Below are positions 1,627-4,408 of a stretch of 5,155 nucleotides of DNA, in pieces. Source of the DNA: a virus (taxonomy: Duplodnaviria; Heunggongvirae; Uroviricota; Caudoviricetes); the IMG/VR virus record IMGVR_UViG_2778261499_000005. One strand, given 5' to 3'. How positions within the stretch are numbered: position 1 is the stretch's first letter; the number at the start of each line of letters is the position of its first letter. The translations under genes were made by a program, and so were the position numbers. The notes under the pieces were generated by a model. The model saw only the letters and a program-made list of their open reading frames with translations, searched no databases and was not told where the DNA came from.

Positions 1627-1871
1627 GAATAGTGTTCTATCTGATAAATATAAAATATTTAAGGTCAGGTCTGCTTATCGCTCAAAGCGGACTAGAAGGT
1701 TAGCTTGCGTCGGACTTGGCGTATTTAAAGAAGTGCTGGTGGTGACTGGTTGTTGTGTTCCATTTCTACAGAACAAAATCACAGAAACTATACCCAATAG
1801 TTATATTGAATCAATGATGAGACAGCCTCATATTTATCAGGACTGGTGTACGTCCAATACAGGAGGTTGTC

Positions 1872-1961
1872 GTGCTGGTTCTCAAATGTGCGCTAGCTAT
1901 TGCGGCTGTAATGGCAATTTATTGTCTTGCTGTTGTTCTTACGGATCGCCTTTCTGATTGA
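1872..1961 (+). CDS. Candidate small membrane peptide, 29 aa (MLVLKCALAIAAVMAIYCLAVVLTDRLSD)
   Basis: AGGAGG (1861-1866) lies 5 nt upstream of GTG 1872. The product is a single hydrophobic helix with a charged tail (TDRLSD); stop TGA at 1959-1961. Too short to appear in the ORF track; no homolog recalled. Confidence 0.3.
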   Translation: MLVLKCALAIAAVMAIYCLAVVLTDRLSD

Positions 1962-1968
1962 TTTTATA

Positions 1969-1997
1969 TTGGCGAGGTGACGTGAGTTAAGTAGAAT
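1969..1997 (+). promoter_or_regulatory. Candidate hok mRNA promoter: TTGGCG (1969-1974), 17-bp spacer, TAGAAT (1992-1997)
   Basis: Good -10 (TAGAAT) with a TTGnnn -35 at 17-bp spacing. The predicted start near 2004 coincides with the 5' element that is complementary to the region after hok. Confidence 0.4.
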
Positions 1998-2003
1998 TGC
2001 TGC

Positions 2004-2051
2004 GGGTGCTTGAGGCTATCTGCCTCAGGCATGAACACCAAAGGCAGATAG
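2004..2051 (+). promoter_or_regulatory. hok mRNA 5' leader refolding elements (tac/ucb/dcb-like)
   Basis: 2009-2015 (cttgagg) pairs with 2023-2029 (cctcagg) as a 7-bp stem with a 7-nt loop. 2016-2024 (ctatctgcc) is also the exact reverse complement of 2043-2051 (ggcagatag). 2004-2015 is complementary to 2380-2392. These are mutually exclusive pairings, as in the hok mRNA switch. Confidence 0.45.
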
Positions 2052-2059
2052 AGAAAAGC

Positions 2060-4225: not shown

Positions 4226-4303
4226 TTTCTTACGTATAAACTGCTTCAATTTTGCTATGCTTCGCAAAGCTGTATCGCGAGGCGGATTGCAGACATGGAC
4301 ATC
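4226..4303 (+). promoter_or_regulatory. Candidate Q-dependent late promoter and Q-utilisation region (position only; hexamers unresolved)
   Basis: Sits between the Q stop and the terminator, where lambdoid phages carry the late promoter and qut site. TATAAA at 4235-4240 is a possible -10, but no well-spaced -35 was found. Confidence 0.25.
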
Positions 4304-4305
4304 GT

Positions 4306-4332
4306 AAAAAAACCGCTTAATGCGGTTTTTTT
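4306..4332 (+). terminator. Symmetric, potentially bidirectional intrinsic terminator (tR-prime-like)
   Basis: aaaaaaa-ccgc-ttaat-gcgg-ttttttt: a 4-bp GC stem (4313-4316 / 4322-4325) with a 5-nt loop, flanked by a 7-A run (4306-4312) and a 7-T run (4326-4332) that extend the stem. Confidence 0.6.
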
Positions 4333-4369
4333 ACGTCAGGAAAGCAGGGGAGAATGCTGCTAGTTGGGC

Positions 4370-4408
4370 AACTGGTCTTTCTGCTCCAAATTATAACAGA
4401 GACCAGTT
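4370..4408. repeat. Perfect 9-bp inverted repeat, aactggtct (4370-4378) / agaccagtt (4400-4408), with a 21-nt spacer
   Basis: Exact reverse complements read from the sequence. An 8-T run follows at 4425-4432. Function unknown: RNA hairpin or protein-binding site. Confidence 0.5.

Follow-up and report, generated by a model that had tools for sequence, protein, structure and literature searches.

A 29-codon gene for a predicted single-helix membrane peptide, upstream of hok in lambdoid prophages

The small open reading frame and its surroundings

The window analysed here is the whole stretch of 5,155 nucleotides (nt) of the IMG/VR virus record IMGVR_UViG_2778261499_000005 (Caudoviricetes), and its subject is a small open reading frame (ORF) that ends just before the promoter of a hok/sok locus. 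The ORF comprises 29 codons (1872..1961, + strand), begins with GTG, stops with TGA at 1959-1961 and has the product MLVLKCALAIAAVMAIYCLAVVLTDRLSD. An earlier, sequence-only reading of the window had described it as a frame led by a consensus Shine-Dalgarno (SD) sequence, directly upstream of the hok promoter, encoding one transmembrane-type helix with a short charged tail and possibly a second small membrane toxin. The descriptive part of this reading was borne out by the sequence and the ORF list. AGGAGG at 1861-1866 is followed by the 5-nt spacer TTGTC and then by GTG 1872, and the ORF ends 7 nt before the -35 hexamer of hok. The peptide (29 amino acids (aa), below 60 aa) appears as one very hydrophobic helix with a short acidic tail; on the Kyte-Doolittle scale, residues 6-24 have an average hydropathy of 2.56. 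Position 1821, from which the same reading let the feature begin, marks nothing particular.

The features of the small gene and its cassette are as follows (dN/dS stands for the ratio of non-synonymous to synonymous substitution rates).

1669..1964, + strand: mosaic, separable cassette around the small gene, delimited by its BLAST homology edges
1806..1811, + strand: -35-like hexamer TTGAAT of the putative small-gene promoter, from conservation
1829..1834, + strand: -10-like hexamer CATATT of the same putative promoter, from conservation; transcription would be expected to start near 1841
1861..1866, + strand: SD sequence AGGAGG, 5 nt ahead of the start codon, with conserved variants and with initiation reads on the orthologous GTG of BL21(DE3) (PMC11188072, Table S4)
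1872..1961, + strand: small gene with GTG start and TGA stop, for a predicted single-pass hydrophobic peptide, from conservation, codon bias, dN/dS and hydropathy
1950..1956, + strand: candidate anti-SD CTTTCTG, which may pair with CAGGAGG at 1860-1866 in a weakly supported RNAalifold consensus

The hok unit that follows has a promoter with the -35 hexamer TTGGCG (1969-1974), a spacer of 17 nt and the -10 hexamer TAGAAT (1992-1997). The 5' end of the hok mRNA is at 2004, where a match to the Rfam family RF01794 begins (2004-2178, + strand, 116 bits); the mok frame starts at 2116 and the HokD-like hok gene occupies 2173-2328. A scan of the window for promoters and terminators did not find a terminator between the small ORF and hok.

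The arrangement AGGAGG-N4-9-RTG occurs twice in the window, compared to 0.26 occurrences expected from shuffled sequences. Taken alone, this count is suggestive only; it is the comparative data, and not the SD motif, that lift the ORF above chance.

Selection on the reading frame across copies and relatives

Besides the window's own ORF, we gathered 134 copies, which come from IMG/VR and from phages, plasmids and genomes. Together with the window, the 135 copies comprise 52 distinct sequences of 214 nt, 31 ORF haplotypes and 25 peptide variants. None of the 134 other copies has an indel or a premature stop within the 90 nt of the ORF, and the stop codon is lost in one of them. Indels were found outside the ORF only: the 5' untranslated region (UTR) shows 1-nt deletions, and the upstream sequence an insertion of 9 nt and a deletion of 14 nt. 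The 42 site-by-allele changes within the ORF are distributed over the codon positions 1, 2 and 3 as 14, 7 and 21. Twenty of them are synonymous, compared to 13.5 +/- 2.5 expected from a random placement of as many transitions and transversions as were observed (P = 0.009), and third positions are changed in excess (P = 0.0055). Read in the other two frames, the same changes would be 14 synonymous and 28 non-synonymous with five new stops, and 7 synonymous and 35 non-synonymous, respectively.

In the peptide, the small residues A7, A11, A15 and C18 lie on a single face of the predicted helix (240-320 degrees) and are exchanged among the variants only for T, V or G. Y17-C18-L19 is invariant except for one Y17H copy, and the acidic tail D/E-R/H-L/F-S/G-D/N is conserved.

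The frame is also kept in two diverged lineages. A tblastn search found a full-length copy on 143 plasmids, of which 124 are from Shigella. The copy on the Shigella virulence plasmid pINV is 77.7% identical in DNA to window positions 1772-2056; it has the same 29 codons, ATG replaces GTG, the product is MLVLKGTLAIAAVMTIYCLIVVLMERFSD, and the promoter hexamers and the SD sequence are retained. Compared to the window, it shows dN = 0.14, dS = 0.71 and dN/dS = 0.20 (0.12-0.31 for all comparisons with pINV). It is followed by a relic of the hok promoter and only ~50 nt of the hok leader. The icsP ATG is found 290-380 bp downstream of the copy, which puts the copy ~200-290 bp from the icsP start. 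In pWR501, for example, the copy is at 220153-220239, 294 bp upstream of icsP. In the copy of M90T pWR100, Prokka annotates the ORF as CP037924_00134. We further observed that the small ORF and the hok relic both fall inside the upstream region of icsP (sopA), at 2402-2687 of the pWR501 locus L085 and at ~90,810-91,095 of CP037924.

The second lineage is a diverged homolog of 34 aa, which was found at the same position upstream of hok in loci that do not have the block. It has the form MSDDISLAMEGALAV[IV]AVVGVYCLVVFLMDRLGN and is annotated in O157:H7 by PGAP as the hypothetical protein WP_001278450.1, MSDDISLAMEGALAVIAVVGVYCLVVFLMDRLGN. The 34-aa and 29-aa forms are collinear over 28 codons and identical in 52 of 84 nt (62%), with dN 0.375, dS 1.25 (saturated) and dN/dS 0.30; nearly all replacements are among V, I, L, M and A. 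P0108 represents an intermediate between the two forms (...AVMAIYCLVVFLIDRRGS). The 34-aa ORF is followed by hok in 71 of 79 IMG/VR loci and lies inside the phage early operon, 30 nt after another small ORF, with no promoter-like element. Between this ORF and the hok promoter we noticed a perfect palindrome of 22 nt, CGATATGGGAATTCCCATATCG, with no T-run after it (L217 and ~70 loci); loci of the L039 type have a truncated remnant of the 34-aa ORF together with the same palindrome.

Judged by these comparisons, the ORF codes for a protein and evolves under purifying selection. The check that the sequence-only reading had proposed, namely conservation and the pattern of synonymous and non-synonymous changes in related prophages, thus turned out in favour of the GTG-1872 frame, with the frame kept, third positions in excess and dN/dS at 0.20 for pINV and 0.30 for the 34-aa paralog. 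The same check went against the overlapping Cys-rich peptide that the reading had offered as an alternative small protein. Its stop was given correctly (TGA 1955-1957), its start at 1826 was not, the true start being ATGATG at 1814-1819. We give practically no credence to this frame of 47 aa (ATGATG 1814 to TGA 1957) as a real product: it is open in the window, but it has no SD sequence, most haplotypes have CTGACG or other codons in place of ATGATG, some copies contain stops, 1-nt indels in the 5' UTR (pINV and other classes) move it into another frame, and it is the frame with 7 synonymous and 35 non-synonymous changes.

The signals for expression are conserved with the frame. The SD sequence is AGGAGG in the majority of the 135 copies and GGGAGG, AGGAGA or AGGGGG in others, always with the 5-nt spacer. 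Further upstream, ATATT of the -10-like hexamer is invariant in 135 of 135 copies, and the spacer towards the -35-like hexamer has a constant length of 17 nt while its sequence has diverged. TTG of the -35-like hexamer is kept in ~122 of 135 copies, including those in diverged contexts (TTGAAG, TTGCTG and, on pINV, TTGAGT). The consensus scan did not list this promoter because the match falls below the threshold of the scan. The conservation of hexamers and spacing is a moderately strong argument for a promoter of the small gene itself, which would start transcription near 1841. We note as a separate observation that a promoter-like site on the minus strand (1814-1787, TTGATT-16-TATAGT, 9/12) stands back-to-back with it and recurs in the Shigella flexneri locus L089 and, as CTGACT-16-TATAGT, on pINV. 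The upstream cargo gene of the phages Tritos and mEp460 is on the minus strand, so that the divergent site could drive leftward cargo; we were not able to find a terminator or an RNA family for a leftward transcript from it.

Evidence of translation comes from published data. Table S4 of 'The Cryptic Bacterial Microproteome' (Fesenko et al., PMC11188072) includes the ortholog VLVLKCTLAIVAVMAIYCLVIVLMDHLSD of BL21(DE3) and REL606. In BL21(DE3) (NC_012971.2, 1591437-1591524, minus strand) it has 13 initiation-site counts under retapamulin and 38 ribosome footprints, with a fraction of 0.90, and was called by smORFer; in the Entero67K set it is predicted to be coding, that is, under purifying selection. 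Its cluster, Escherichia_98807, has 389 sequences with dN 0.074, dS 0.161 and a ratio of 0.46 (PMC11188072). Initiation-site ribosome profiling, which the sequence-only reading had named as a check, is therefore positive by this published re-analysis, for the BL21(DE3) ortholog and not for the window's own allele. The main text of PMC11188072 mentions neither hok nor prophages nor Shigella, and it proposes no function for the cluster.

Was the gene, as the sequence-only reading suspected, missed by annotation? For RefSeq and PGAP this is so, since they leave the SD-led GTG-1872 frame without annotation; it is not so in general, since the catalogue entry exists and exact-sequence look-ups showed that the 29-aa peptide bears the label 'membrane protein' or 'conserved hypothetical protein' in scattered entries, among them the GenBank records of REL606 and BL21(DE3). 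REL606 retains the whole cassette (NC_012967.1, complement(1619975..1620064)); its ORF carries no PGAP annotation, and the numbering of locus tags skips ECB_RS08100 at that spot. In the literature, the peptide sequence strings were absent from full texts, no paper discussing the ORF specifically was found, and the supplements of the Sakai small-gene paper contain nothing on it. What is already known is thus a catalogue entry and scattered GenBank annotations, and the gene is of the kind of the small hydrophobic microproteins of mobile elements.

Next, we consider how the gene is packaged and distributed. Homology to other prophages starts at window positions 1667-1678, whatever the upstream gene is (BLAST), and the right edge lies just past the stop codon, where homology ends in the class of loci that has no hok (L089 and 10 further loci). 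The boundaries of the cassette are discrete and its neighbours vary, upstream and sometimes also downstream. A moron would have a promoter of its own as well, and for the putative promoter here the support is only the conservation of hexamers and spacing. At the left edge we observed a hairpin, GTCYGC-N12-GCGGAC (1669-1692), in which the stem is kept and the loop varies (window, L089, L210, L026), with no T-run on either strand.

Window positions 1627-2010 (384 nt) match 2261 of 5426 complete E. coli genomes, and 1547 of these matches cover at least 80%; a single genome holds as many as 4 copies, and the matched stretch carries no annotated feature. Four sequenced phages carry the block (Tritos, Evi, mEp460_ev081 and HannyBb). 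Hok follows the ORF in 108 of the 135 copies. On the other hand, many hok loci, including hokD of K-12, do not have the ORF and share only the sequence from ~1981 onward. Conversely, in 11 loci, including one on the Shigella flexneri chromosome (L089), the ORF is kept and a yeaR-like gene on the opposite strand is found in place of hok, with a bidirectional terminator ~190 nt downstream of the ORF. By this distribution, the small gene is independent of hok. In the Qin prophage of K-12 the region was examined and does not contain the cassette; relBE is found at that position. This absence from K-12 is likely the reason why the small gene has not been studied.

The searches place the peptide in Escherichia and Shigella. 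A phmmer search of 1.84 billion representatives returned 9 matches, all at least 83% identical and none outside these genera. A GTDB scan with one genome per species likewise found Escherichia and Shigella only, apart from three short contigs of metagenome-assembled genomes (L088, L090 and L091, assigned to Collinsella, 'Candidatus Scatousia' and Haemophilus). These contigs show an E. coli-type ORF followed by the hok leader and are probably mis-binned Escherichia prophage DNA. For the 34-aa form, a word-indexed search of 5.8 billion clusters gave 49 matches, all of them E. coli hypothetical proteins.

Several observations concern the neighbours. Upstream of the cassette, 328-1626 of the window is a low-GC ORF of 432 aa that matches phrog_15354 (unknown function) with E = 2.8e-263; in Pfam, only DUF7772 was matched, with E = 5.5, which is not credible. 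In related prophages the same slot is occupied by hypothetical proteins, QueH or a truncated methyltransferase, and in its gene content it looks like a hot spot for cargo and defence genes. We also noticed a second family of tiny hydrophobic ORFs, which we call ORF-A (27 aa, M(T/S/N)WPEA(F/L)..VGIAMAVALVVYSICRWG). The start codon of ORF-A and the stop codon of the nin-region gene ahead of it overlap as ATGA, and what follows ORF-A is either the 29/34-aa ORF or hok: it lies upstream of the 29-aa ORF in L153, L035, L205, L106, L147, L178 and L199, and directly before the hok promoter in L059, L078, L056 and L038, and is also found in L217 (1150-1240). In some records its residues are the C-terminal tail of 'DUF551 domain-containing' proteins of 121-185 aa, and it matches phrog_4612 weakly (E ~0.01). 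Further downstream in the window, a match to Rfam STnc100 (RF02076, 4973-5155, 81.5 bits) lies after the Q antiterminator gene and is cut by the window end, and weak isrK-like matches on both strands (4259-4387, ~20-22 bits, below gathering) surround a strong terminator hairpin.

Alternative explanations of the ORF

The sequence-only reading suggested a second toxin. According to this explanation the peptide would be the toxin of a further type I toxin-antitoxin module. Once made, it would permeabilise the inner membrane or depolarise it, and it would normally be silenced by a small antisense or divergent RNA or by a fold of its own mRNA. The size, the single hydrophobic helix and the short charged tail are indeed like those of type I toxins, the gene adjoins hok/sok in a cargo hot spot, and the observed translation is low. 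However, we found no match for the 29-aa peptide at E<=10 in Pfam or NCBIfam, including Hok/Gef (PF01848, NF007279), Ldr and Fst, while the same NCBIfam run gave 3.8e-13 for Hok, the neighbour. PHROGs gave no match for the 29-aa peptide and only a chance-level match for the 34-aa form (E = 0.12). As judged by these profiles, the ORF is outside the Hok family and every other profiled family. A Hok paralog, an idea that we had considered, is a resemblance by eye only, to which the profiles give no support. Moreover, the tail is acidic here, whereas the tails of toxins are mostly basic.

The search for an antidote led to a similar picture. Two promoter-like sites on the minus strand could be proposed as its source: the divergent site at 1814-1787 described above, with its counterparts in L089 and on pINV, and a second one at 1990-1961, on the antisense side of the ORF's 3' end. 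The latter is found neither in the hok-less class nor on pINV, and an antisense RNA would have no terminator. Within 1669-2003 there is no credible Rfam family (chance-level matches only at E<=1), and there is no direct repeat of at least 10 nt between the upstream region and the mRNA that would give complementarity to a trans-encoded RNA. As to the mRNA itself, RNAalifold suggests, with weak support, that the candidate anti-SD pairs with the SD sequence and that a 4-bp hairpin (GUGC 1872-1875 / GCGC 1890-1893) covers the start codon. In this consensus fold 99% of the cells are paired, a figure to be read with the fact that the structure was derived from the same alignment; compensatory changes amount to two pairs, in the pINV lineage only. 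The minimum-energy fold of the single sequence differs from the consensus, has an unremarkable stability (z = -0.9 to -1.4) and exposes the consensus SD sequence in a loop. An explanation by an RNA element was rejected on the same grounds, that is, no credible Rfam match and weak covariation only by RNAalifold and pair counting. Hence there appears to be no convincing antitoxin RNA, though an unrecognised RNA would be beyond the reach of these tools.

The distribution also speaks against a toxin: there are up to 4 copies per genome and no recognisable antidote, and the 34-aa paralog has neither its own promoter nor a regulatory spacer. Because it is promoterless and located 30 nt behind another small ORF, the paralog looks like an ordinary early-operon gene rather than a toxin-antitoxin module. 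Overall, nothing that we found speaks positively for a type I toxin beyond these resemblances, and we regard the toxin explanation as improbable.

Could the ORF be a non-functional chance frame, conserved by hitch-hiking with hok/sok and by recombination of the block, so that its ribosome reads merely reflect pervasive translation? The majority of the copies are 90-100% identical in DNA, mosaic recombination is able to mimic conservation, hydrophobic ORFs arise easily, the ribosome-profiling signal is low and the pINV copy has no listed transcription start site (TSS). Furthermore, selection is absent in most translated intergenic small ORFs (PMC11188072). We nevertheless hold this explanation to be quite improbable. 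Frame, length and start are kept at 78% (pINV) and 62% (34-aa paralog) DNA identity, with saturated dS and dN/dS of 0.2-0.3. Third codon positions are favoured with a significant synonymous excess, indels hit the 5' UTR and the upstream region and never the ORF, the SD sequence is conserved with its spacing, and the ORF is kept where hok is lost.

An even less probable explanation is that the stretch acts in cis as a leader of hok, with upstream transcription or translation modulating hok/sok by promoter occlusion or by a 5'-extended hok mRNA and with the peptide being secondary. It would account for the 7 nt between the stop codon and the -35 hexamer of hok with no terminator between the units, for the frequency with which hok follows, and for the position of the 34-aa paralog, which is directly upstream of hok as well. 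It would not account for selection at the protein level, for the persistence of the ORF where hok is missing (11 loci and 143 plasmids), for the fact that most hok loci function without the ORF, or for the perfect palindrome that separates the ORF from the hok promoter in the 34-aa class.

Proposed role and comparison with known systems

We therefore think it likely that the ORF genuinely encodes a single-pass membrane peptide of 29 residues, carried by a moron-type cassette and acting by contacts of its helix, where the functional part of this reading is an inference. The peptide belongs to a small family with lengths of 29-34 residues, which is restricted to Escherichia and Shigella and is encoded between the lambdoid replication genes and the Q antiterminator, directly upstream of hok/sok. 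In the window, the discrete cassette of ~290 bp provides the consensus SD sequence, the GTG start and a putative, moderate sigma-70-type promoter (TTGAAT-17-CATATT), and the gene would probably be expressed alone and weakly, as an accessory gene of the moron type. We expect the peptide to span the inner membrane with a single helix (residues ~6-24), where it would act by helix-helix contacts, either with itself or with a membrane protein of the host or the phage.

Several points weigh against this reading. The putative promoter matches the consensus in 8 of 12 positions, and TTG of its -35 hexamer is lost in ~13 of 135 copies. The table of TSSs from differential RNA sequencing of M90T lists icsP TSSs at 90709 and 90726 and none between 90800 and 91199, that is, none for the pINV ORF and none for the relic hok promoter in the conditions of that experiment; this table is the one source of direct transcription data that we came across. 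The 13 initiation counts of the BL21(DE3) ortholog are low, since known small proteins have 100-1400 in the same Table S4 (PMC11188072). In addition, BL21(DE3) differs from REL606 by a deletion that removed the QueH region and the promoter of the small ORF (L297, ~1591440-1591560) and brought the DUF977 gene to within 15 nt of the SD sequence, with the DUF977 coding sequence ending inside the small ORF; because of this deletion the reads confirm that ribosomes initiate at the SD and GTG, and they say nothing about the promoter. Within closely related prophage copies dN/dS is 0.25-1.07, only moderately below 1. The charges flanking the helix differ between the 29-aa and the 34-aa forms (K5 aligns with E10), and since they are not conserved, topology and orientation cannot be predicted. 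Finally, we were not able to find a partner, a phenotype or a homolog of known function.

What the gene might be for is a matter of conjecture. Its position among variable cargo beside hok/sok would suit a role in phage-host or phage-phage conflict. It is also conceivable, although we would put little trust in it, that the peptide is a functional partner of Hok, neutralising or potentiating it in the membrane, or an independent membrane-active effector of abortive infection; lambdoid prophages often show the fixed order ORF-A (M-T/S-WPEAFTTVGIAMAVALVVYSICRWG), 29/34-aa peptide, Hok. If true, a partnership with Hok would mean that a toxin system thought to be controlled by RNA only is regulated at the level of proteins too.

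The gene matters for practical reasons as well. About 28% of the complete E. coli genomes carry the block, and because RefSeq leaves the gene unannotated, transcriptomic, proteomic and transposon-sequencing analyses ignore it. On pINV, its copy lies inside the icsP upstream region that is commonly included in promoter-lacZ constructs. The gene is carried by E. coli B REL606, BL21(DE3), E. coli C and ATCC 8739, and in those strains one could test directly whether it takes part in phage exclusion, in the physiology of the membrane or in the biology of hok. Note that it is one among tens of thousands of catalogued hydrophobic microproteins and that nothing yet sets its function apart.

How does the peptide compare with known systems? 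The cluster Escherichia_98807 is the same family as the window ORF and differs in being a catalogue entry only. WP_001278450.1 of the O157:H7-type lambdoid prophages is a true homolog with the common core ALA-x-x-AV-x-x-x-YCL-x-V-x-L-x-DRL. Like the 29-aa form, it is encoded directly upstream of the hok promoter, in the same orientation and with a strong SD sequence; unlike it, it has five extra acidic residues at the N-terminus, no promoter-like element and a palindrome after it. It is annotated by PGAP while the 29-aa form is not, and both are uncharacterised.

With Hok/Gef, represented here by the neighbouring hokD-type gene (2173-2328), the peptide shares its small size, one N-terminal hydrophobic helix and carriage by prophages and plasmids. 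By eye, both also have a Cys within an I/Y-C-L helix motif and a T-D/R-K/R-D-L-like exit from the membrane. On the other hand, the peptide has no profile match to Hok/Gef, no periplasmic C-terminal domain and half the length, and its gene has no overlapping mok-like frame, no Sok-like RNA and no hok-type leader.

Ibs, Ldr, TisB, ShoB, ZorO and DinQ are hydrophobic single-helix peptides of 19-35 aa that are encoded in intergenic regions and often missed by annotation. Each of them comes with a defined antisense or divergent small RNA and a complementary stretch, and often with a tandem copy of the gene. In contrast, no such small RNA, complementary stretch, tandem copy or sequence similarity was found here, and the tail is acidic.

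MgrB, AcrZ, MgtS, CydX and KdpF are encoded by chromosomal core or regulon genes, have known partners and bind a larger membrane protein. The peptide differs from them in being mobile cargo of prophages and plasmids, with no identified partner and no homology. It resembles them, however, in its size, its single predicted transmembrane helix, its strong SD sequence and a packing face of small residues; this face, together with the conserved Y-C-L and the tail, would fit helix packing as it is found in small regulatory membrane proteins.

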